DNA of 64,000 bases from Clostridiaceae bacterium (GCA_012839865.1 DUMO01000024.1:19075-83074), one strand, 5' to 3'; shown: positions 14,768 through 32,344, numbered from the stretch's first letter. Numbers and translations are program-made. The notes: generated from the sequence alone by a model not told the origin.

Positions 14768-16012
14768 ATGGACAGAGTTATACTGCATTCGGATTTAAAC
14801 AATTTTTATGCCAGCGTTGAGTGCCTTTACAATCCGGAGCTTCGCGACAAGCCGGTAGCTGTTTGCGGCTCCCAGTCCACCAGACACGGAATTGTACTGG
14901 CAAAAAACTATCATGCCAAATCTGCAGGGGTAAAGACCGGCGAGGCCATATGGGAAGCCCGGAACAAGTGTCCCGGCCTTGTAGTGGTTCCGCCAAACTA
15001 CCTTCTATACCTTAGGTTTTCCATGTCTGCACGGAAGATATACGAGGATTACACAAACCTGGTTGAATCCTTCGGTATTGACGAAAACTGGCTTGATGTA
15101 ACCGAAAGTGCAAGGCTTTTTGGAGACGGGGAAAGAATAGCTTTTCAAATCAAGGAAAGAATCAAGTCCGAGCTGGGTATAACCGCTTCCATAGGTGTAA
15201 GCTATAACAAAATTTTTGCAAAAATAGGCTCGGATTTGAAAAAACCTGACGCTGTAACAGTCATAACCCCTGAAAACTACAAAGAAAAAGTCTGGACCCT
15301 TCCCGTGGGGGATCTTTTATACGTAGGCCGCGTCACCAGGAGAAAGCTGGCCGACATAGGCATATTGACTATCGGCGACCTGGCCGGCGCATCGCCAAAA
15401 TTTCTTGTGAGGAAGCTGGGCAAGTGGGGTGAAATGCTGTGGTCCTTCGCCAACGGCTATGATCAGACACCTGTTGCAAGGACGGATTATGAACTTCCGA
15501 TAAAAGGCATCGGAAATTCCCTTACGACCCACAGGGACCTTACAACCAACGAAGATGTAAAAATTCTTGTTTACGTATTGTCCGACAGTGTGGCAGAGCG
15601 GCTGAGACGGCATCATTTCAAGGGGAAAGCCGTCCAGATATCCATCAGGGACTCAAAGCTTTCCTACATTGAGAGGCAGGGGCAGCTTGACACATATACC
15701 TGCACATGCTCGGAAATTGCGCAAAAAGCCTATGAGATTTTTCTGGATTCCTGGGATTGGTCACAAAATATCAGGGCACTGGGGGTACGGGTTACAAGTC
15801 TGATACCCTCGGACCGCCACGTGCAGTTGTCTTTTCTGGATGATGACAGAAGATTGAAAAGAGAGCTTCTGGACAGGAGCATAGACAAAATAAGATCCCG
15901 CTTCGGCCACTACTCGGTACAGCGGGCGCTGCTCCTTAAGGACAACGGCCTCAACGCCAACCCTGTAGAAGAAAACGTCATCCACCCCGTGGCATACCAC
16001 GTGGGGCAATAG
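14768..16012 (+). CDS. dinB: DNA polymerase IV (Y-family translesion polymerase)
   Basis: MDRVILHSDLNNFYASVE and the Y-family palm, finger and little-finger pattern. The start was taken at MDRV, 14 bp after the second LexA box. Confidence 0.9.
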   Translation: MDRVILHSDLNNFYASVECLYNPELRDKPVAVCGSQSTRHGIVLAKNYHAKSAGVKTGEAIWEARNKCPGLVVVPPNYLLYLRFSMSARKIYEDYTNLVESFGIDENWLDVTESARLFGDGERIAFQIKERIKSELGITASIGVSYNKIFAKIGSDLKKPDAVTVITPENYKEKVWTLPVGDLLYVGRVTRRKLADIGILTIGDLAGASPKFLVRKLGKWGEMLWSFANGYDQTPVARTDYELPIKGIGNSLTTHRDLTTNEDVKILVYVLSDSVAERLRRHHFKGKAVQISIRDSKLSYIERQGQLDTYTCTCSEIAQKAYEIFLDSWDWSQNIRALGVRVTSLIPSDRHVQLSFLDDDRRLKRELLDRSIDKIRSRFGHYSVQRALLLKDNGLNANPVEENVIHPVAYHVGQ

Positions 16013-16303
16013 TAGATTCAACGGGTGCTTCCAAGCGGATTGCGGTGTTTTCAGGCGGATTGCACATGAGAAACTTCCGGCACCAGGCATGCAAAGGGAA
16101 CATTATTTATACCGTGGGCAACCCGGTTATCCATATTATGTGCCATGGCTATTACATGCAAAGAAAACATCGTTCACCTTGTGTGGTTTTCCGCACGGGC
16201 CACCGTTCTTGGATGCTTCTGCGGGATGTGCATCAAAATGACAGGTTTATGAAACTTCACCTTGCTTTTGGGGAATAATCGTAATTCAAGTTAGGGTGAT
16301 TTT

Positions 16304-20268: not shown

Positions 20269-21216
20269 TCATCTGCTGAAAAATTGTATTAGCTGAATAA
20301 CGGCCGGTCCCAATATTATAATGAAAATAGCAGGAAAAATGAAAAATATCAGAGGAAACAACATTTTTACAGGAGCTTTCATTGCTTTTTCCCTGGCTGC
20401 ATGTTTTCGGTTTTCCCTTATTTGTGCTGCCTCTATCTTCAAAACCCTGCCCAGACCCACTCCAAGTTCATCGGACTGAATAACTGATGTTATAAACGTG
20501 CTCAATTCTTTTATTTCACAGCGTTCACACATGTTTTTCAAAGCTGTTTTACGCTCGAGCCCCATTCTTATTTCCTTAAGGCTTTTTGCAAACTCATCGC
20601 TGAGTTCTCCGTTTATATTGCCTACAACCCTTGACATAGCACCATCAAAGGACAATCCCGCTTCAACACTTGCAGTTATTAAATCAAGGGTATATGGCAG
20701 GTCCTTTAAAATTTTTCGCTTTCTGATTTCTATTTTCCTTGACAGAAAGAAGTTGAAGAAGAATGCGGTATACAACATGGAAATCCCCATAAGGACAAAG
20801 GATGCCAACAGGTTCCTGCCGGTTATAAACGAAAACAGACCTGCTGAAGCGGAAAAAAACAATATCACCATGCTTCTAAGGTACAGCCATTGTTCTTTTG
20901 TTCTGTTTTTCAATAGCCCGGCCTTCTCCAGTTTACTGTAAAATCGCTCTAATTTTTTATCTGTTATGACTTTGGACAAAATAAAATTAAAAACCTTGTA
21001 AAAAAGCATGCGCAATGTTTCCAGCAAATGCGTGCCATCTTCATTTTGCGGTTTAACGTCCCCTAAAATTCTAATTTTCCCTATTCTGTTCTCTACCAGA
21101 ATCCTGTTTTTAAATAAAATCACTGAAACTGCATAAGCTAGTAAAAATATTACCGCAAATGACAGCAATACAATGAACAGCAACAAACCTACCGCCCCCA
21201 AAAGCAAATCTTGCAC
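20269..21216 (-). CDS. tadC: Tad pilus assembly inner-membrane protein TadC (T2SS-F domain)
   Basis: N-terminal TM helix, a T2SSF domain and a C-terminal TM helix (LFPLIFFIFPAIFIIILGPAVIQ). Confidence 0.8.
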   Translation of the reverse strand: MQDLLLGAVGLLLFIVLLSFAVIFLLAYAVSVILFKNRILVENRIGKIRILGDVKPQNEDGTHLLETLRMLFYKVFNFILSKVITDKKLERFYSKLEKAGLLKNRTKEQWLYLRSMVILFFSASAGLFSFITGRNLLASFVLMGISMLYTAFFFNFFLSRKIEIRKRKILKDLPYTLDLITASVEAGLSFDGAMSRVVGNINGELSDEFAKSLKEIRMGLERKTALKNMCERCEIKELSTFITSVIQSDELGVGLGRVLKIEAAQIRENRKHAAREKAMKAPVKMLFPLIFFIFPAIFIIILGPAVIQLIQFFSR

Positions 21217-21424
21217 CTATAGGCCTCATGTCCTGTGCAATTACCATGCCACATTTCGCTTTCCGCGATTTGACACTTAAACCCGTTAAGGGACCTGTCT
21301 CTTTACATTTCAATGTTGACAATTTTTCTTATCATCAAAAATCCAAACAATTCACTCACTATGCCTGTGACTACCATAGCCAGACCTACAGGTGTGGTAA
21401 ATAAAAGAAGCATATAGCTTTTGT

Positions 21425-22273
21425 TCAGAACAAAAAAACAGCACATAAAAAAACCGGTATCAACATGACAACAACTCCGGACAATCTTCCCTGAGCTGTC
21501 AATGTTTTGAGCTCATTTTTAATTTTTTGCCTATCCCTGATCATTTCTGAAATATTGTCCAGGATCCCTGAGAGATTTCCCCCAACATCCTTTTGTATTA
21601 AAACAACATTTACCATCAGTTTTAAATCTTCTGATTCCACTCGAAACAACAAATTCTTCAAAGCGTCTTCTTCAGCTATGCCCAGGCTGATTTCTTTCAG
21701 CAGTTTCCTGAATTCCTTTGACAGAGGCTCCTTTGTTTCCTCAACCACTATGGATAATGATTGCAAAAATGAGTAGCCCGCTTTTAATGAACTTGATAAT
21801 ATGATAATTCCTTCATTCAACTGTTCATCAAATAGTTTTAATCTCTCTTTTTTCTTATATGAGATAATTATCCGGGGCGAATAATATGCAAATAAAGATG
21901 AAAGAATAGCAAAAATTGTGCTTCCTGCTGCATAATGGGAAAATATAGCAGCAATTAATGATAGTATCATTTTTATGGTTAGAACTTCTCGTACCGGAAT
22001 TGGTATGTCAGCCTTTATAAGGTCCGCTTCAAGCCTTTTTGCCCCCTTGCTGTTTGCAACTGCATCCGGTACAAGGCTTGATAAAAACTTTATAAGCCCT
22101 GTTTTGTCGTTTTTTGGGTTTTCATCATTCCCGGCATTTTTATCATCCCTGTCAAAAAATTTGATCTTGTCAATGGGTTTTTCCCTGCCGAAAATTTTCA
22201 TTAAAACAGCACTCATAAAGACCCATGCAAATATGAAAGTTAAAATGCCTGCAAAATACAGCATCCATATCAC
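21425..22273 (-). CDS. tadB: Tad pilus assembly protein TadB (T2SS-F domain); C-terminus probably truncated by a frameshift
   Basis: T2SSF domain protein. A 36-codon ORF in another frame (21303-21413) carries the expected C-terminal TM helix and IRKIVNIEM tail. See the finding on the A7/T7 tract at 21432-21438. Confidence 0.75.
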   Translation of the reverse strand: MIWMLYFAGILTFIFAWVFMSAVLMKIFGREKPIDKIKFFDRDDKNAGNDENPKNDKTGLIKFLSSLVPDAVANSKGAKRLEADLIKADIPIPVREVLTIKMILSLIAAIFSHYAAGSTIFAILSSLFAYYSPRIIISYKKKERLKLFDEQLNEGIIILSSSLKAGYSFLQSLSIVVEETKEPLSKEFRKLLKEISLGIAEEDALKNLLFRVESEDLKLMVNVVLIQKDVGGNLSGILDNISEMIRDRQKIKNELKTLTAQGRLSGVVVMLIPVFLCAVFLF

Positions 22274-22422: not shown

Positions 22423-23760
22423 TCAATTGAAAATGCTTTGAGGTATGTTGATCCCCTTTTCCTTCAACTTTTTTACAAATCCGGGTACAATGCCTGTATA
22501 AACAAACTCACCTTTTACCTTTCCCCTGTTATCCACACCTTTTTGCTGAAACCTGAATATATCCTGCAGTGTTATTACATCTCCTTCCATTCCTTGCACC
22601 TCGGTTATATATGTAATCTTCCTGCTGCCATCCATAAGCCTTGACTGGTGAATAACAAGGTCAATGGCTGATGCAATCTGGTCCCTTATAGCCTTTAAAG
22701 GCAAGTTGAACCCCGACATCAACACCATTGTTTCAAGTCTTGCCAGCATGTCCCTTGGGGAGTTTGCGTGTCCTGTCGTAAGGGAACCGTCGTGACCCGT
22801 GTTCATTGCCTGAAGCATGTCCAGTGCTTCTCCTGACCTGACCTCTCCTACAATAATCCTGTCAGGACGCATTCTTAAGCTGTTTTTCACAAGATCACGG
22901 ATTGTTATTTCACCTTTCCCCTCCAGGCTTGCCGGTCTTGTCTCAAGCCTTATTACATGCTCCTGGGAAAGCTGAAGCTCTGCTGCATCTTCTATTGTTA
23001 TGATTCGCTCATCATTTGGTATAAAAGATGACAGTACATTCAGGGTTGTTGTCTTACCGCTTCCGGTCCCTCCCGAAACAATTATGTTCAGCCTTCCTTC
23101 GACGCAGTACCTTATAAGCTCTGCCATCTTTGAATTTAGAGTGTTAAAGCTGATCAAGTCCTCCATTTTAAAGGGGTCTTCAGAAAATTTTCTAATCGTA
23201 ATTGAAGGGCCATCTATGGCAAGTGGAGGAATAATGGCATTTACCCTGGATCCGTTAGGGAGCCTTGCGTCAACCATGGGAGAGCTTTCATCAATTCTCC
23301 TGCCAATAGGTGCTACAATCTTTTTTATTACATGCATCACATGGCTGTTGTTTTTGAATTTTACATCTGTCAGTACCAATTTCCCTTCCTTCTCAATATA
23401 TACCTGGTTATATCCGTTTACCATGATTTCAGTAACTTTATCGTCTCCAAGGAACCCGGTAATCGGTCCAATCCCGACAATTTCATCCAAAAGTTCCTCC
23501 CGGATTTTACTTTTCTGACTGGTTGTCAAGTTAAGGGCTTCCTGTTCGATATGCTTCGTAAGAATGGAATGAATTTTCTTTTTCAGTTCCTCGTTCTTAT
23601 CGGAGATTTCATCAAAATTAATATCCAGTTCATCAATTACCTTGTTATGTATCTTCATTTTTAAAATTGTATAAGGATCTGCTTTTTTTTCATTATACCT
23701 GCCAAATTTTCTGTCTGCATTTACCTCTTCCAGTCTTTTTACAAGAGACATTACCTTCAC
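22423..23760 (-). CDS. cpaF: Tad/Flp pilus assembly ATPase CpaF/TadA
   Basis: A VirB11/GspE-family secretion ATPase with Walker A SGGTGSGKTT and an Asp box. Confidence 0.9.
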   Translation of the reverse strand: MKVMSLVKRLEEVNADRKFGRYNEKKADPYTILKMKIHNKVIDELDINFDEISDKNEELKKKIHSILTKHIEQEALNLTTSQKSKIREELLDEIVGIGPITGFLGDDKVTEIMVNGYNQVYIEKEGKLVLTDVKFKNNSHVMHVIKKIVAPIGRRIDESSPMVDARLPNGSRVNAIIPPLAIDGPSITIRKFSEDPFKMEDLISFNTLNSKMAELIRYCVEGRLNIIVSGGTGSGKTTTLNVLSSFIPNDERIITIEDAAELQLSQEHVIRLETRPASLEGKGEITIRDLVKNSLRMRPDRIIVGEVRSGEALDMLQAMNTGHDGSLTTGHANSPRDMLARLETMVLMSGFNLPLKAIRDQIASAIDLVIHQSRLMDGSRKITYITEVQGMEGDVITLQDIFRFQQKGVDNRGKVKGEFVYTGIVPGFVKKLKEKGINIPQSIFN

Positions 23761-23761
23761 C

Positions 23762-24916
23762 TCACACCGTCAATTTGCTGCACATTTCTTCAATTGCCTT
23801 GCATACTTTTATTTTGTTGTATTTGTCGCTGTCGCATATAGGTTGTCCTCTATTGACTGACAAACCCACAATTTTGTCTTTTCTGGGTATCATTGCAAGC
23901 AAATTGTCCTTGAAGGTTTCTTCCACATCATTCTTGCTTACGCCATAACCTGCATCCATTTTATTAATAACAAGTTTCACCTTGCTTTTATCATAGCCCA
24001 GGGAACGCATTACATTTAACCCCAGTTTGGTATTTTTCAATGCTGTTATCTCCATGGTGGAAACAAATATAATCGTATGGGAGTAATCCAGAATAAAAAG
24101 AGTATTATCGTTGAAGTTGATGCCTGTATCAATTACCAGCACATCATAATGCTTCTGACAGGCTTTAATAATTTTTTCAATATCATTCCTTCCGATGTAC
24201 TCTGCAGCTTCCGGTTTCCCCGGGGCAAACATCATATGAAGGTTTTCATTGTAAATATACAGATATGGTATTATATTTTCATAAGAATCCAACTGGCCTT
24301 CATCCACCAGGTCCAGAATGCTTTTGTGATTAATCTGGTTGGTTAATATGGAGATATCGCCAAATTGCAAATCCATATCAATTAAAAGTACTTTTTTGTT
24401 CGGATTTTTACTTAACATGACAGCGCAGTTCAATGCCAAAACAGATTTTCCGACACCGCCCTTGGAGCTGAAAAAGGTTATGACTTTCCCTTCCCTGTCC
24501 TTCTCCTGACGGCTCAACATTTTTATCTGCCTGTCCCTGTATTTGGTATATGTAACCCGGATGGTCTCAATCAAATCGTCCACATTGAAAGGTTTTATTA
24601 TATATTCCTTGGCTCCGTTCAGCATCGCCTTTTTCAGGTATTCGCTTTCTCCCTGCACCGACATGATTATAACTATTACATTGGGAAAAGTATTTGTAAT
24701 CTGTTCGGTAGCCTCAAGCCCGTTTAATACAGGCATGTTTATATCCATAAGAACTACATCGGGATTTACTTTTGGTATAAGCTCCAGTACTTCTTCGCCG
24801 TTTGTGGCTTCCCCTACAACTTCAAAAATGTCGGACTCCATCAGTAATATCCTTTTAATCAGGGTGATAGTATCTATAATATCGTCCGCAATTAATACTT
24901 TGATTTTATTATTCAT
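23762..24916 (-). CDS. Response-regulator receiver domain fused to CpaE/TadZ-like ParA/MinD ATPase
   Basis: The REC domain is intact: an acidic pocket (LIADDII), the phospho-acceptor Asp in LMDINMP, and the conserved Lys in IIKPF. The P-loop is a deviant Walker A (SSKGGVGKS). Confidence 0.8.
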   Translation of the reverse strand: MNNKIKVLIADDIIDTITLIKRILLMESDIFEVVGEATNGEEVLELIPKVNPDVVLMDINMPVLNGLEATEQITNTFPNVIVIIMSVQGESEYLKKAMLNGAKEYIIKPFNVDDLIETIRVTYTKYRDRQIKMLSRQEKDREGKVITFFSSKGGVGKSVLALNCAVMLSKNPNKKVLLIDMDLQFGDISILTNQINHKSILDLVDEGQLDSYENIIPYLYIYNENLHMMFAPGKPEAAEYIGRNDIEKIIKACQKHYDVLVIDTGINFNDNTLFILDYSHTIIFVSTMEITALKNTKLGLNVMRSLGYDKSKVKLVINKMDAGYGVSKNDVEETFKDNLLAMIPRKDKIVGLSVNRGQPICDSDKYNKIKVCKAIEEMCSKLTV

Positions 24917-24929
24917 TGTGCCACCCCTG

Positions 24930-25895
24930 TCAATTCAATACTGGAATTTTAAGTACCTGTCCGGTTATGATAATATTCGGATCTTCAATATTGTTTGCTT
25001 CCATAATCAACTTGTAATTTTCATCGTTACCATAGAATTCCCGGCTGATTTTAACCAGGGTATCACCGCTTTTAACAGTATAATTTATATATTCAGTGCT
25101 GTTTGTTGCGTTATTGTCGTCTTCACAAGGTGTATCAGCATCTGTTTGGGAAGGTTCATCATAAGCCGGTATTGAAATCTCCTTCCATATTACTCCTTGG
25201 GTTTCTATTACACTGTCATCTTTCAAAGGCCTCAGGGCAAGCGTTATATTGCCTATGTTGTCAGCCAGTACAATCTTTTCCACATCAGTTGCGGCAACTG
25301 ACAAAGTAACTAAAAACATCGACGGAACATTTTCTGAAGACTTTTCTGTTTCATCCCTGTTTAACAGTTTATCAATTGCCAGGACTTCAATATTCTGAAG
25401 CAGCATCTTTGAAGAGTCATACCTGACAATCTCCGAATCCTCTGTTTTCTCGTCAAAAGTAGCGACTATATCAACAAAGTCACCAGGTTTGATTAATTGG
25501 GAAACCCCTGTGCTTCCTAATACGCTGATTGAAATTGCTCTATGGTTTTCCCTTACTCTAAGGCTCAATTCCGTTTCCAGGGCATCCAATAGCTTGTCAT
25601 GATGAAAGCCTTCATTTTTCAGTATGGTTTCCCTGGTGTACTTGCCTTCAATCTGGCTGTAATCACGCAAATAATCCGCAAAGATTGGATTATCTTCAAC
25701 TTCGATTTCTCGAATCATGTTCCTTTTAATTAAAGTTCTAGGAGGTATTACATCCGCGGCAACAAGAATTTTTGTCAAAGGAACTTCCTTTTCCGGCTCC
25801 TTTAAAGTTCTTAGATATACAAAAACAGCCACTGCAGCAATTGCAGCCAGCACAAATGATATTAAAACCAGTTTCTGTTCCGTACTTTTCATCAT
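24930..25895 (-). CDS. cpaB: Flp pilus assembly protein CpaB/RcpC with C-terminal LysM domain
   Basis: N-terminal TM helix, a SAF/CpaB core and a C-terminal LysM (YTVKSGDTLVKISREFYGN...TGQVLKIP). Confidence 0.8.
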   Translation of the reverse strand: MMKSTEQKLVLISFVLAAIAAVAVFVYLRTLKEPEKEVPLTKILVAADVIPPRTLIKRNMIREIEVEDNPIFADYLRDYSQIEGKYTRETILKNEGFHHDKLLDALETELSLRVRENHRAISISVLGSTGVSQLIKPGDFVDIVATFDEKTEDSEIVRYDSSKMLLQNIEVLAIDKLLNRDETEKSSENVPSMFLVTLSVAATDVEKIVLADNIGNITLALRPLKDDSVIETQGVIWKEISIPAYDEPSQTDADTPCEDDNNATNSTEYINYTVKSGDTLVKISREFYGNDENYKLIMEANNIEDPNIIITGQVLKIPVLN

Positions 25896-25902
25896 GATAC
25901 TC

Positions 25903-26880
25903 CTACCTTGACAGTTTTACACCGTATGCTCCCGTATCATTCAAACTCATATCTATTACACCTTTTGTAACGTATTGCACAAATCTGCCAACCAGCTCTG
26001 CATTTCCTCCGCTATTGCGCACTTCCTCAACATAAAACTGTGCAAAGCCCACCACCTGCACCTGGCCTCTTCCATTAACCTCAAGGGTATCCACCAACGG
26101 AAGTGTCCATAAGCGGATGGAATCTCTGCTGAAATTGTTAAAGGTGCTGTTCTCCTGCTGTATATAATCCCTTATTGCATTGATGGCGCCTGACATGTTT
26201 CCTGTTTCAGTATCAATATAATCTCCGACTGATAATGTACCGCTGAAACCATAAAGGGCATTGTTCCTGTAAGTGCTTTGCCCGGTGCCTCCAAGGGCAA
26301 CGGTGCCATAATTGCCGCAATAACCGTCTCCTGCGCCTTTTTTGAGTATTACGACATCACCATAGGTATAATCAAAAATTTCAACTGCAAAAGGTCTTAT
26401 TCCCCCATTCACAGTTTTTATTGGTCCTATAACCGCCTTTGTCGCAGCAGCCACATCACTGTTATATATGCCCAGTATGGGGGCGAACAAGTGGTTCACG
26501 CTCAAATTGCCTTCTATTTCAATGCTTTTATTGTCAGGGCTTATTTTAATTACGGTATTGTCAGGATCAATATTGTTTTTAATAAGATATTCCAAAGCGA
26601 CACTTCTTGCCTTCGCTTCACCGGCAGGCAGCTCAAGAGCCGCTGCCAGGGCTGCTGCATCAATGGCATTGTACAATCTGGCTTTTTCTATATATACCAT
26701 CCCGACATCAACAGAAAGGGCCATAAACCCCAACAAAGCGCTTAGCAGCAGGCATGTAATAATTGAGACGCTTCCTTTTTTGCCTTTAAACAGCAGCAGC
26801 TTCTTATGACTCCTTGCCTGTACCATTCCGGATAAGGCAAGCAATTCAAAAACTGAATGTTCCACTGTCATCACCTTCAT
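25903..26880 (-). CDS. TadG-like (TadE/G-like N-terminal domain) pilus-associated protein
   Basis: KGSVSIITCLLLSALLGFMALSVDVGMVYIEKARLYNAIDAAALAAA is the TadE/G-like N-terminal motif. The remainder is a large Gly-rich extracellular domain. Confidence 0.6.
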   Translation of the reverse strand: MKVMTVEHSVFELLALSGMVQARSHKKLLLFKGKKGSVSIITCLLLSALLGFMALSVDVGMVYIEKARLYNAIDAAALAAALELPAGEAKARSVALEYLIKNNIDPDNTVIKISPDNKSIEIEGNLSVNHLFAPILGIYNSDVAAATKAVIGPIKTVNGGIRPFAVEIFDYTYGDVVILKKGAGDGYCGNYGTVALGGTGQSTYRNNALYGFSGTLSVGDYIDTETGNMSGAINAIRDYIQQENSTFNNFSRDSIRLWTLPLVDTLEVNGRGQVQVVGFAQFYVEEVRNSGGNAELVGRFVQYVTKGVIDMSLNDTGAYGVKLSR

Positions 26881-27206
26881 TCAATTCTCATGGAGACTTT
26901 GGCATGCAGTACAATTGTGTCGTTGAACAATAGATTAATTACAGGTACTGTAAGTTGATAATTATAATTTGCTTCCACGGTAAGAGTATTTCCTGATATC
27001 CTGCTACCCGGAAGCGGTGTTATATTAATTTCCAGATGGCTTTCATCCAGGACAGGAGAGGCAGACATCATCAAATGCATTATTTCAGCATCTGAACTAC
27101 CTGTAATGCCTGCCCTGGCTCCTTCCCGGACTGCGTTGTTAAGTGCAAGATATGCATTTAAAACCATACCAAATTGCGCAATTCCCATAACAATTATCAG
27201 CAGCAA
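26877..27206 (-). CDS. TadE-like pseudopilin (N-terminus probably extends upstream to about 27266; start codon unclear)
   Basis: In-frame upstream codons read GGQSLAEFAVVLPLLLIIVMGIAQFG. This is the classic TadE-like processed N-terminus. RBS AGGAGG is present at about 27240. Confidence 0.6.
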   Translation of the reverse strand: MLLIIVMGIAQFGMVLNAYLALNNAVREGARAGITGSSDAEIMHLMMSASPVLDESHLEINITPLPGSRISGNTLTVEANYNYQLTVPVINLLFNDTIVLHAKVSMRIE

Positions 27207-27288
27207 GGGTAGGACAACTGCAAATTCAGCAAGGGATTGCCCTCCTGGTAGATATAAAAAGTCACATTATGTAAAGTAATTAGGTCAT

Positions 27289-27480: not shown

Positions 27481-28155
27481 CTATTCCTTGTTGCCAAACT
27501 TCGACTTATAATAATCTTCGATATTATTCTCAATGGAAAAGATGGTTGCCTGGACACGATGGCTTACGTTCAGCTTCCTGAAGATATTGGTAATGTAGTT
27601 TTTCACCGTCTTTTCCGATATATACAGGGCATCCGCTATTTCCTTGTTGCTCAAACCTCTCGATATATTAAGCAAAATTTCAATTTCCCTCTGTGAAAGA
27701 CAGTCAAAAACACCTTCGGCATTTTTATTTTTTATTTCTGAGAACAGCAAAGATATCAGCGCTTTATCAATATACTTTTCTCCATTATAGACTGTTCGAA
27801 TTGCACTCACAATCTGAGTTCCTGCAGAATCCTTCAGTACATATCCGTCTGCTCCTATATTAATTGCCTTGTTAATCGTCAGCCTGTCATTCTCTATGGT
27901 AAGCATAATCACTTTGACATTCTCATATTGCTGCTTTATTTTTTGGAGCAATGTAATACCGTCAATAACCGGCATATTTACATCCAGCAGCAATACATCA
28001 GGCTGATACCTTTTCAGCATGACCATTACTTCTTCTCCGTTTTTTGCTTCACCATAAATGGCAATATCATCTTCCATGCTTATAATTCTTCTTAAACCCT
28101 GTAGTATCAGGTCATGATCATCTGCAATCGAAACTCTAATTTCCTTTTTTTTCAT
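27481..28155 (-). CDS. DegU-like response regulator (NarL/LuxR family)
   Basis: A REC domain (ADDHDL, LLLDVNMP) and a C-terminal LuxR-type HTH (LSQREIEILLNISRGLSNKEIADALYISEKTVKNY). Confidence 0.85.
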   Translation of the reverse strand: MKKKEIRVSIADDHDLILQGLRRIISMEDDIAIYGEAKNGEEVMVMLKRYQPDVLLLDVNMPVIDGITLLQKIKQQYENVKVIMLTIENDRLTINKAINIGADGYVLKDSAGTQIVSAIRTVYNGEKYIDKALISLLFSEIKNKNAEGVFDCLSQREIEILLNISRGLSNKEIADALYISEKTVKNYITNIFRKLNVSHRVQATIFSIENNIEDYYKSKFGNKE

Positions 28156-29185
28156 CCTTAATCACCTCTCGATTAACCGGCAGCTTTATGGTATATGTGG
28201 TCCCTTTCCCTTTTTCAGACTGTATCTTTAAACTGCCCCTCAGTTGATTTACCCTGTCCTCTATACCTATCAATCCATAAGAAATCCCCTTGTTTCTTGC
28301 GTTTATCAAGGTTTCCTCCACGTCAAACCCAATACCGTCATCAGATATAACCAGCATTAAATATTTCGTGCCATAATCAAGCTTGATTTGAGCATGGCTT
28401 GCCCTGGCATGCTTTTTTATATTATTAAAAGCTTCCTGGATAATACGATAAACTGCAACTTGTATGATAGGCTCAATTTCTTTATGTACTGGCTTCATTT
28501 TTATGTCCAGTTCTATTCCTGTCTCGTGCATTATCATTTTTACGGTCTCGGAAATTGTTTCATTCAAACCCAAATCATCCAGCGCCATGGGTCTTAAATC
28601 AAAAATGATATCCCTTACTTCCTTAAGGGCCCTTTTGACACTTTGTTTCAGGTCTTCCAATTCTTTAAGGCCTTCGTTGAAATCCCTTTCAATCACCATC
28701 TTGCAAATATCTGCCTTCATTACTGCATTGGCCATATGCTGCGCCGGCCCGTCATGAACATCCCTTGCAATTCTCTTTCTTTCGTTTTCCTGGGCCTCCA
28801 ATATCTTTATGCTCAATTGTATTTCGGAATGGGCCTCAGCACCTTCCAGGGCTGTAACAACATCCCCCTCCAGGTACATTAAAGCAACACTCATCTGACT
28901 CATCACTTTTTCAGCACTTTCAATATTCTGCAATGATTTTTTCAATGCTATTTCTATTATTGACCTCCTTTTTAACAGTTCCTTCTCTTTGTTTTTTTCG
29001 ATAATCAGTGCTATTCGAGTGTCTTCTGCGTTTTTATAGGCAGCTTTAATATCTTCTTCCGTAAATGTATCAAACTTTTTTGAAACCTCTGCAAGTTTTT
29101 GTCTCGCAACTTTATCCTGCTTTTCCAGTTCATCCACCCTTGCAATAGTCTGCTTGATATCCTGTTTAATTGCAGCCAACTCCAT
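28136..29185 (-). CDS. DegS-like cytoplasmic sensor histidine kinase
   Basis: No TM segment. An N-terminal DegS-type coiled-coil sensor domain and the H-box [18 protein letters not shown] (compare DegS IHDGPAQMLANVMMRSEL). HATPase_c follows. The gene overlaps the regulator start by 20 bp. Confidence 0.85.
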
Positions 29186-31212
29186 TTCAAGATTCTCGGA
29201 GACGGAGTCGGTGACGGTGTCGGTGTCGGAGTCGGTGTCGGAGTTGGCGTCGGTGTCGGAGTCGGTGTCGGAGACGGTGTCGGTGTCGGACTCGGGCTCG
29301 GACTCGGGCTCGGGCTCGGCGACGATGTCGGCGTCGGGCTCGGGCTCGGACTCGGCGACGGACTCGGGCTCGGGCTCGGGCTCGGACTCGGACTCGGGCT
29401 CGGACTCGGGCTCGGCGACGGACTCGGCGACGGACTCGGGCTCGGTGACGGAGTCAATTCAGCCGGGTTTATAACAGCGCTGATTACCCTGACTTCCTGG
29501 GTTACCGTAAAGGTTACGGGAAGCATATTATCTGCCGAAATTTCCACGTTTGCCGTATATACTCCGGCCGGCAGCCCGTCTTTTGCCCTTATGGTAAATG
29601 TGGTGGAAGGTGTCACCTCATCAAGATTTTTAGCTTCAGGCTGGGTGATTTCAAAGGCATCCGCATCATCCCCGCTCAAGGTTACCGTAAGATTTGCAAT
29701 ATCCTCAGTTGCCTCCCTTGTCACTGTTATACTCCTTGTCTCCTGCATACCGGAAGCATAACCTATACCAAGTATCGTCATAACCTGATCGTCGATAGGT
29801 ACTATACTGCCTGTTGCCCACCTGGCATAAAGCGTGACGTTACTGTCACCCATGACAAGGGTCGAGCCTTGCAAATAATCCGCTCCTTTTCCATCGGCTT
29901 TGGTGTTCCAGCCTTTAAAGACATGACCTGTTTTTGACAGTTCATTGATGTTACCCGTGACAGTAACAGTTTGTCCCGGCTTATATACATTGGTGTCAAC
30001 GGGCACATCGCCCCCGGTATTCCCGTTCCCGTCATAGGTTACAGTGTAAAAGTCAACTTCCGCAACATTGAAGGTGTATCCATTAGGCAGCTTGCCGGGT
30101 GCAGTTATGTTGAGATCTATTGTAAAGTTCTCTTCACCCGTCAGTGTCAGCAAATAAGGCTGACCGTTCTCCACCTGCTCATCGTTTATGGTAATAATCG
30201 CGCCTTCCAGTGAAACTTCCGGTATAATGCTGAAACTCTCCAGTTCTTTTGGTATTTCCAGTACATAGTCGCTTATGTCCTTATTGAATGAAGGCATCAG
30301 ATCAAACCCGGGCAGTCCTTCAAATATCACGTTGTCTATATATGCCGGTGCAATGGCGGAGGACTCTACAGGCGCAGGATACATATCCACTACAAACATG
30401 TCTTTAAATTTATAGCTGTCATTTACCTTTATTTCAGCTGCCAGTACACACTGCCCTGCCTTCAGCGCTTTAAGGTATCCATCCTCTAACACTGCATTTT
30501 GGTCATCGGAGGCCATCCATATACCCGCTGCTTCGTCATTTTCGCCTGTTATTCTCAGAATTCCGCCTCCGAGATAAACCGGGTTTTCCTTTGGTATAAC
30601 CGAATATACATCCAAAGTATCATCAGATGAAACCTTCTGGATATCTCCCGTTATGCGCATAAGTTCCTTCTCACCCTGGGGTACCACAGGTTGCTGGTTG
30701 CCTTTAAAATGATAAATATAGTTCTTTATAATTGTAATCGGCTCATCGCCAAACCCATACACAATTTCATTCTTGCTTGTAATCAAAAGGGTGCCGAACC
30801 CCCGCCTCATATAAGCCGGATTATCCGTTATTTCAATGGCATTTTCCCTGTAAAAACCCTCGATGAGATTATGCCGTATTCCAAGGCCATAAGTACCCGG
30901 CCAGAGGAACGTGGTTTCCCCGTCAATTTTAAAGTGTGTCGGGACGGTGACGTATATGGTTGAATCATCTTCCACATTTACATTCTGGTAACCGATTATA
31001 TATTCATTACCTCCCGCGTCTTTCAGATACACTTCCCACTGGTCCGGATCATCCCTGAGGTAGCTTAGGTTGTCCCCCTTTATCTGAATAACCCTGTATT
31101 TGTCTTCATGATACAATTTGTTGGGAGAAATATATGAATATTGTACATTCGGCATATCCACAAAGGACGGCATGGCAACCACGTAGGCTTTTAAGTATGA
31201 CGTATGATTCAC
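29011..31212 (-). CDS. Cell-surface-type protein with cadherin-like and Listeria-Bacteroides repeat domains, ending in an SP/TP linker; probably a fragment or fusion
   Basis: A cadherin-like beta-sandwich ([10 protein letters not shown]...SFSIIPEV), a Listeria/Bacteroides repeat ([13 protein letters not shown]...[12 protein letters not shown]) and a C-terminal (SP)n(TP)n tract. There is no signal peptide. The last about 60 codons are an out-of-frame read through the degS-like start. Confidence 0.5.
29186..29460. repeat. Tandem 12-bp repeat array (GAGTCGGTGTCG-like units) encoding an (SP/TP)n linker on the minus strand
   Basis: A direct read shows about 22 near-identical hexamer and dodecamer units. 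They translate to PSPSPS...TPTPTP in the frame of the upstream surface-protein gene. Confidence 0.9.
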
Positions 31213-31564: not shown

Positions 31565-32344
31565 TCAGAAAACCCGCATTCCAACGAAATATCTATCACC
31601 TTTTTTTGTGCCCAGAAGCAACTTGGCGGCATGTTCACACCTGCTGTAATATAGCATGTTCAAAAAGGTTGAACCGAATTTTTCTTTAATGTCGTGGGAT
31701 AAATGGTAAAGACTTATATCAAGCTCTTCTGCAATATCTTTAAGACTTGGATTCAACTCAAATTTGCTCCCCAGGCAATTTATAATTTTTCTGAGCCTTT
31801 GCACCAGCTTTTCATCGAAGGCTTCAGTGCCGTATCCCCAGCGTAAAAAGTCGAAATTGTATGTAACATGAACAAGAAGTTCTGTTAAATTATTCTTTAT
31901 GCTTGCCGAATACCCGGGTTGGAGCCTGTCGCCATTTACCGCCAGAACGAGCCTGGCGACATGCTCTTTGAGTTCATTGTACCTTTGGGGCAGTTCCCCT
32001 TCGAAATAGGCGGAACAGCAATAGATATACAAGTACTTGTTATCCGGAAAAAGGTTTCGAAAAAATTCCCCTGAAATCTGTATAATCAGCGTTTCATTAT
32101 TTTCGCTTTGACTAATGCAATGCAGCTCGTTAACATTTACAAGTGCTATATCGTTTTCTTTTAATTGAATTTTTTCATCACCGATGACCATATTGACTGA
32201 ACCCTTCCGGACTTGCACAATTTCCATAGTATCATGCCAATGATAGGGATACTTCCCAACATAACCGGAAAACATTTTTACAGGCAGTCCTTCGGAAAAA
32301 TCAAATAACTCAGGACGCATACATTCCCCCGTTATATAAAGCAA
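31565..32344 (-). CDS. AraC family transcriptional regulator (cupin sensor + AraC HTH)
   Basis: An N-terminal cupin-like domain and a C-terminal AraC-type HTH pair. Confidence 0.8.
   Translation of the reverse strand: MLYITGECMRPELFDFSEGLPVKMFSGYVGKYPYHWHDTMEIVQVRKGSVNMVIGDEKIQLKENDIALVNVNELHCISQSENNETLIIQISGEFFRNLFPDNKYLYIYCCSAYFEGELPQRYNELKEHVARLVLAVNGDRLQPGYSASIKNNLTELLVHVTYNFDFLRWGYGTEAFDEKLVQRLRKIINCLGSKFELNPSLKDIAEELDISLYHLSHDIKEKFGSTFLNMLYYSRCEHAAKLLLGTKKGDRYFVGMRVF

Follow-up and report, generated by a model that had tools for sequence, protein, structure and literature searches.

Adhesion pili of the Tad/Flp type are encoded by loci such as tad of Aggregatibacter actinomycetemcomitans and cpa of Caulobacter, in which genes for a TadA/CpaF ATPase, a TadZ/CpaE-like ATPase, CpaB, a TadG-like protein, and TadE are followed by a tadB-tadC pair of paralogs, each with a single T2SSF domain of the GspF/PilC superfamily. 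In A. actinomycetemcomitans, the conversion from rough to smooth colonies is said in a review to occur through mutations in tad/flp, while poly-G contingency tracts are found in pilus or surface genes of other bacteria such as pilC of Neisseria or in Campylobacter. Single-nucleotide transcriptional insertions concentrate in runs of A or T and rise exponentially with run length (Traverse & Ochman 2017, PMC5574713), and in many genomes selection against slippery A/T runs is evident at ca. 9 nt (Baranov et al. 2005, PMC1088944). In E. coli test cases with 1-bp deletions, -1 suppression of the non-programmed kind reached an aggregate of 1-10% (Springstein et al., PMC10861913).

The operon described here lies in a 64-kb window (the whole stretch of DNA that was analyzed) from a metagenome-assembled genome (MAG) of a Clostridiaceae bacterium and shares the architecture outlined above, i.e., a single T2SSF domain on TadB, a tadB-tadC pair of paralogs, and the same set of partners (TadA/CpaF, TadC, TadZ/CpaE, CpaB, and TadE/TadG) encoded around tadB (Table 1). 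It differs from the described loci in being a Gram-positive clostridial form whose TadZ has a receiver domain and whose CpaB has LysM, and by two lesions: a 1-bp deletion has split tadB, and flp, the Flp prepilin gene (PF04964) that belongs to a functional Tad/Flp locus, is missing. Scans of the tad operon for promoters and terminators gave no excess over shuffled sequences. Directly upstream of the former flp promoter region, at 27481-29185, the window encodes a DegS-type histidine kinase and a LuxR-type response regulator that likely control the tad operon.

Table 1. Features of the tad operon and its two lesions (window positions; strand relative to the window).
Feature	Position	Strand	Basis or remark
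tadC, T2SSF paralog, intact	20269..21216	-	ORF table, Pfam
tadB 3' part, -1 frame	21303..21431	-	VLNKSYMLLLFTTPVGLAMVVTGIVSELFGFLMIRKIVNIEM followed by TAA (21305-21303)
Premature TGA stop, product of the frameshift	21425..21427	-	minus-strand reading
tadB 5' part, 279 aa	21425..22264	-	ATG start at 22264, used in public gene calls
tadB with alternative GTG start at 22273, 282 aa	21425..22273	-	ORF table
T7 homopolymer (plus-strand A7), site of the 1-bp deletion	21432..21438	-	T8 in the intact allele
Second T7 run, codons P-V-F-L, 8 nt upstream of the first	21447..21453	-	invariant among the contigs compared
tadA/cpaF secretion ATPase, intact in the window	22423..23760	-	Pfam
A8 run in tadA (plus-strand T8), codons E-K-K	23683..23690	-	A7 in contig L008
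tadZ/cpaE-like ParA-family ATPase with N-terminal response-regulator receiver domain	23762..24916	-	Pfam
cpaB/rcpC-like protein with LysM	24930..25895	-	PF16976, PF01476
Tad-domain (TadG-like) pseudopilin/assembly protein	25903..26880	-	PF13400
tadE remnant, first 15 codons (start codon, leader) gone	26877..27243	-	contig comparison
Junction of the 308-bp deletion, 2-bp GA microhomology	27243..27244	.	comparison with L004:1737-2044; TACCAGGA joined to GGGCAATCC at 27243/27244

The initial annotation had proposed that tadB is truncated by a frameshift in a homopolymer and that the missing C-terminal transmembrane (TM) segment is encoded in the next frame. All of its coordinates agree with the minus-strand reading and the ORF table. 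Around the tract, the codons of the window read GCT GTT TTT TTG TTC TGA on the minus strand, and the truncated protein ends in ...IPVFLCAVFLF (C-terminus ...MLIPVFLCAVFLF) ahead of the TGA at 21427-21425. At the RNA level, frame-0 GUU UUU UUG holds U_UUU_UUG, which formally is an X_XXY_YYZ slippery heptamer with a stop two codons on but is a by-product of the homopolymer. The 36-codon ORF that follows (21413 to 21303, minus strand) encodes MLLLFTTPVGLAMVVTGIVSELFGFLMIRKIVNIEM in frame -1 relative to tadB, and this frame is open from ATG 21446 (47 aa) as well as from ATG 21413 (36 aa). Adding one T to the tract joins both parts into a continuous ...LCAVFFVLNKSYMLLLF..., and this predicted fusion is, residue for residue, the public 320-aa protein P0122.

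Reading of the minus strand revealed no Shine-Dalgarno-like sequence ahead of ATG 21413 or ATG 21446. Translation of the tail fragment from ATG 21413, which lies 11 nt past the TGA, could in principle occur by re-initiation and complement the truncated TadB. At the other end of the gene, the 282-aa product of the GTG start had no match in the exact-protein look-up; public calls start at ATG 22264. The second T run, in the P-V-F-L codons, is not peculiar to this species, and runs of seven or eight Ts at this position are common in related species.

The window tadB is a disrupted member of the TadB/T2SSF family. Its T2SSF domain (PF00482) scores at E=2.4e-20 and 73.2 bits against a gathering cutoff of 25.2 over residues 159-281, a nearly complete match even in the truncated protein with the lost part falling beyond the Pfam model. 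A search with the reconstructed 323-aa protein recovered 814 relatives at E<=1e-10, the best 120 of which are 310-349 aa long (mostly 316-326) and cover 92-100% of the query. We then compared the lost part with orthologs. The 40 downstream residues align with the C-terminus of 22 orthologs, in all of which (22/22) the tail is contiguous with the rest of TadB, the last 40 residues are strongly conserved, and N281, L288, F289, T290, G294, G308, I312, I315, and I318 are invariant. Similarly, among 80 loci fetched from GTDB species representatives, the tail could be measured in the 66 in which a TLTAQG motif was found, and from this motif to the stop it comprises 67 aa in one frame in 66/66. Orthologs thus do not end at the equivalent of CAVFLF, and the downstream ORF is no unconserved stretch. 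Given the Pfam match and these alignments, the split of tadB into two frames is not due to chance. TadB of the window lacks the contiguous C-terminal loop and last TM helix, with the tail left in the -1 frame.

An AlphaFold2 model of intact TadB (mean pLDDT 72, i.e., medium confidence) has helices at residues 231-280, 282-290, and 292-319. The frameshift deletes the conserved C-terminal 43 residues (278-320): the penultimate TM helix loses its end, and the conserved loop helix is gone together with the last TM helix and its basic RKIVNIEM tail. With Foldseek, the cytoplasmic domain of this model matches EpsF, OutF, PilC, and TcpE at probability 1.00 and a TM-score to the target of 0.7-0.79. 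Searching PDB sequences with a TadB profile gave no match, and only cytoplasmic domains of GspF/PilC relatives have been solved. Because the membrane part of the family is unsolved, what the lost TM helix does is deduced from its conservation and from the medium-confidence model.

To follow the tract across public data, we read allele states from assembled contigs (ENA, Logan, JGI, and NCBI MAG) that were found by exact-protein look-ups. The 90%-identity cluster of the top TadB match holds three proteins. P0122 is the window sequence plus one T (T8) and occurs in DRR066659, DRR066660, SRR15686344, and JGI samples 3300064362, 3300012949, 3300022230, and 3300010011, while P0001 (320 aa, one amino-acid difference, also T8) was found in JGI 3300021045 and 3300020111. 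The third, P0121 (279 aa), is the truncated product and identical to NCBI HHV59296.1, which is annotated as [quoted passage not shown]. Around these alleles, the DNA is 99.8-100% identical to the window, so the intact T8 allele is present within the same species. It was seen in at least eight other samples or runs, i.e., the ENA and Logan assemblies of DRR066659/DRR066660, Logan SRR15686344, and six JGI samples. By contrast, T7 is limited to the window with the NCBI MAG protein HHV59296.1 and to two runs, DRR066657 (ENA contig k127_81646, 86.9 kb) and DRR066658 (ENA contig k127_44728, 48.4 kb, and a Logan assembly), whereas their sister runs DRR066659/DRR066660 have T8. These four DRR runs come from a single project, PRJDB5067 (“biogas fermenter metagenome”).

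Across the tad operon, the tadB tract is the sole indel between the window and nine T8 contigs. The alleles also differ in their surroundings: at 23753 and 24740, the window and DRR066658 share A and T, respectively, and DRR066659/60 have G at both positions. A sequence pattern with flexible tract length had no match in the JGI metagenome and GTDB genome collections that we scanned; the same pattern works on the fetched loci, and the species is therefore absent from those two collections. Our literature searches on PRJDB5067, HHV59296, and the DRR0666xx runs turned up no paper, and those on tad-locus pseudogenes found no direct precedent for a homopolymer frameshift in tadB.

The other lesion is a 308-bp deletion that took all of the flp pilin gene with its ribosome-binding region as well as the 5' end of tadE. 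What remains of tadE has no start codon ahead of the conserved prepilin-like G/SLAEF processing motif and is called as a protein of 103 aa versus 136. No copy of flp or flp-like ORF is present anywhere in the 64-kb window, although another flp gene or tad locus could be encoded elsewhere in the genome. However, flp is present in the conspecific contigs L004, L108, L115, and L118, and in ca. 30 related species it adjoins tadE with a near-full-length TadE match. The state of the window is therefore derived, i.e., a deletion and not an insertion elsewhere. All scorable runs of PRJDB5067 (56, 57, 58, and 60) have this deletion (Δflp), and five JGI samples are without it. The ENA contig of DRR066659 (L114/L121, position 1 corresponding to 27244 of the window) begins exactly at the deletion junction, which suggests a break in the assembly graph and perhaps a mixed population of flp+ and Δflp cells.

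When both lesions are scored together, three combinations emerge: flp+/T8 in JGI 3300020111, 3300021045, and 3300064362 (each with the whole operon on one contig), Δflp/T8 in DRR066660, and Δflp/T7 in DRR066657, DRR066658, and the window. The fourth, flp+/T7, was not seen among the scored samples. These nested states point to a loss of flp first and the tadB frameshift second as the simplest history, in which flp and the 5' end of tadE would have been deleted in the biogas-fermenter lineage and the tadB frameshift would have followed in a sub-lineage. Since Δflp is found on two SNP backgrounds (23753 and 24740), there must also have been recombination among co-existing strains or a history beyond two sequential events.

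Of the three explanations that the initial annotation had left open, a true inactivating mutation is the one favored by these data, with sequencing error and programmed expression both disfavored. T7 is probably a genuine, lineage-specific 1-bp deletion that reflects gene decay rather than recoding: it is missing from close relatives, and the same operon carries a further lesion, the 308-bp flp/tadE deletion. Having arisen in a lineage already without flp, it would therefore be the second lesion in a dispensable Tad pilus operon that was no longer needed, or was selected against, in the fermenter habitat. Mechanistically, an ancestral run of eight Ts in V-F-F-V codons (GTT TTT TTT GTT) would have lost one T, most likely by replication slippage. 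The frameshift swaps residue 278 onward for L-F-stop and removes the conserved periplasmic-side loop N-x-x-Y-x-x-L-F-T-x-x-G together with the last TM helix and the cytoplasmic RKIVNIEM tail. As far as can be judged from sequence, such a truncation would inactivate or severely cripple the TadB/TadC inner-membrane platform. A few per cent of full-length TadB could still be made by slippage of RNA polymerase or the ribosome on U7, though only incidentally. The kind of event is ordinary, i.e., a homopolymer frameshift that creates a pseudogene, and the intact allele is already public as “tight adherence protein B”.

The most serious rival is phase variation, in which the T8/T7 tract would be a reversible slipped-strand ON/OFF switch of the Tad platform and different samples would have caught different majority states. 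Both tract lengths indeed occur in near-identical genomes within one fermenter project, and in one case (L009, JGI 3300010011, with T8) the tract is the only difference from the window over 4 kb. Moreover, the species' version of the window has seven 8-nt runs, and the two variable ones both fall into tad genes, with a chance of ca. 1 in 21 if they were distributed at random. However, we consider a switch quite unlikely. T7 has a single origin on one haplotype, being confined to one lineage that is marked by linked SNPs and comes from two runs of a single project, and the contigs compared showed no T9 or T6 variants and no second independent origin of T7 that would indicate repeated switching. 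The tract is not maintained in relatives either, with T6 in the nearest one (L011, 64% identity) and no run of at least 6 nt at this site in most others. Eight A/T residues are also short for a contingency tract. Finally, the tad operon of the T7 lineage already lacks its pilin gene, so that nothing is left to switch.

The other variable 8-nt run is the A8 run of tadA. One contig (L008, JGI 3300022230, ~718) has A7 there, and the resulting frameshift splits tadA into calls of 29 and 411 aa. This change is a singleton and could be an error, which weakens its use as a sign of switching. A broader idea, which we regard as unlikely, is that loss of the Tad pilus is recurrently selected in this digester Clostridiaceae species, or that the pilus alternates between ON and OFF. 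If true, the flp-tadE deletion, tadB T8>T7, and tadA A8>A7 would be three independent lesions in different reactor populations, and the two 8-nt runs of Phe and Lys codons would be mutational fuses or primitive contingency tracts for adhesion in engineered anaerobic ecosystems.

An artefact of sequencing or assembly, i.e., a genuine T8 organism from which one T was lost by homopolymer under-calling, is very unlikely. Homopolymers are classic sites of indel errors, all T7 contigs come from two runs of one project, and two other contigs, L008 and L092, each have a singleton homopolymer difference. Yet T7 was obtained from two separate runs and in independent assemblies (MEGAHIT at ENA, Logan, and the NCBI MAG), sister runs of the same project give T8, and T7 co-segregates with SNPs. 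Other homopolymers also behave differently from what general under-calling would produce. Other contigs cover ca. 52.6 kb of the window, and the only two further homopolymer-length differences in this part are the singletons just mentioned. The 29 A/T runs of at least 7 nt in the covered region (11310-64000) are otherwise the same in T7 and T8 contigs, and of the six 8-nt runs in the window (none is longer) the five covered ones agree between them. In L092 (JGI 3300010011), it is a T7 run at ca. 31594-31600 that has 8 nt; it lies near the 3' end of a gene for an AraC_binding-domain protein (31565..32344, minus strand), and the change alters the last ca. 10 residues of this protein (241 vs 251 aa in gene calls).

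That full-length TadB would normally be made from T7, by programmed -1 frameshifting on U_UUU_UUG or by programmed transcriptional slippage, is extremely improbable and was rejected, because beyond the formal heptamer and its nearby stop the ancestral allele is in frame (T8 prevails within the species, and related species are all in frame), neither the tract nor the frameshift is conserved among homologs although conservation is the defining feature of programmed events, downstream RNA structure is absent (MFE -23.6 vs a shuffle mean of -23.3, z = -0.08), and 7 nt are under the threshold of ca. 9 nt for efficient slippage (PMC1088944). The T8 tract itself is an incidental product of Val-Phe-Phe-Val codons. 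Low-level synthesis of full-length TadB from T7 is plausible, either as ...CAVFFVLNK from a U8 transcript or as ...CAVFLVLNK by a slip on U_UUU_UUG. Such a product bears no sign of an evolved mechanism and, without the pilin, would have no obvious use.

Comparison of the contigs also revealed variation outside the tad operon. A large ORF at 29011-31212 (minus strand) with a long Ser-Pro/Thr-Pro repeat varies among contigs, with 6-bp and 42-bp differences in repeat length at 29340-29420, and its 3' end shares ca. 175 nt with the annotated start of the DegS-type histidine kinase. In L091, a 1-bp difference at 29930 splits this ORF. In L092 and L118, the N-terminal part joined at 30519/30520 is a different and much longer one (1386 aa in L118 vs 733 aa in the window). 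Elsewhere, the DRR066660 contig (L003:13073-13079) differs from the window at 16245 by a 7-bp indel, AAATGGA, between ORFs ending at 16012 and 16781.

For annotation, these results mean that HHV59296.1 (279 aa) and the orphan ORF of 36/47 aa are halves of a single disrupted tadB. Because flp is absent and both tadE and tadB are truncated, a non-functional score is appropriate for the tad operon of this MAG. More generally, comparison of independent public assemblies from one population can resolve a homopolymer frameshift in a MAG without recourse to reads. The locus is also a minor case of an adhesion pilus being lost at strain level in biogas reactors.

Among known systems, genes rescued by slippage such as mxiE of Shigella (T9) or the poly-A genes of Buchnera and Blochmannia (PMC1088944, PMC5574713) resemble tadB in that the frameshift lies inside an A/T run and that one extra U in the mRNA would restore the exact wild-type protein. 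Unlike in those cases, the tadB run of 7 nt falls short of ca. 9 nt, and any rescue would be incidental and low. With homopolymer contingency loci such as the poly-G tracts of Neisseria pilC and Campylobacter, tadB shares that a change of one base in a run toggles the frame of a pilus gene. However, its tract is short (8), made of A/T, incidental to Phe codons, unconserved, and OFF in one lineage. A further likeness is to the progressive pseudogenization of dispensable surface or adhesion operons in specialized, laboratory, or reactor-adapted lineages, as in the rough-to-smooth conversion of A. actinomycetemcomitans. While the pattern described here is known from metagenome assemblies of one uncultured Clostridiaceae bacterium only, both have in common that multiple independent lesions accumulate in one adhesion-pilus operon, here the flp-tadE deletion and the tadB frameshift, with a tadA frameshift in another sample.
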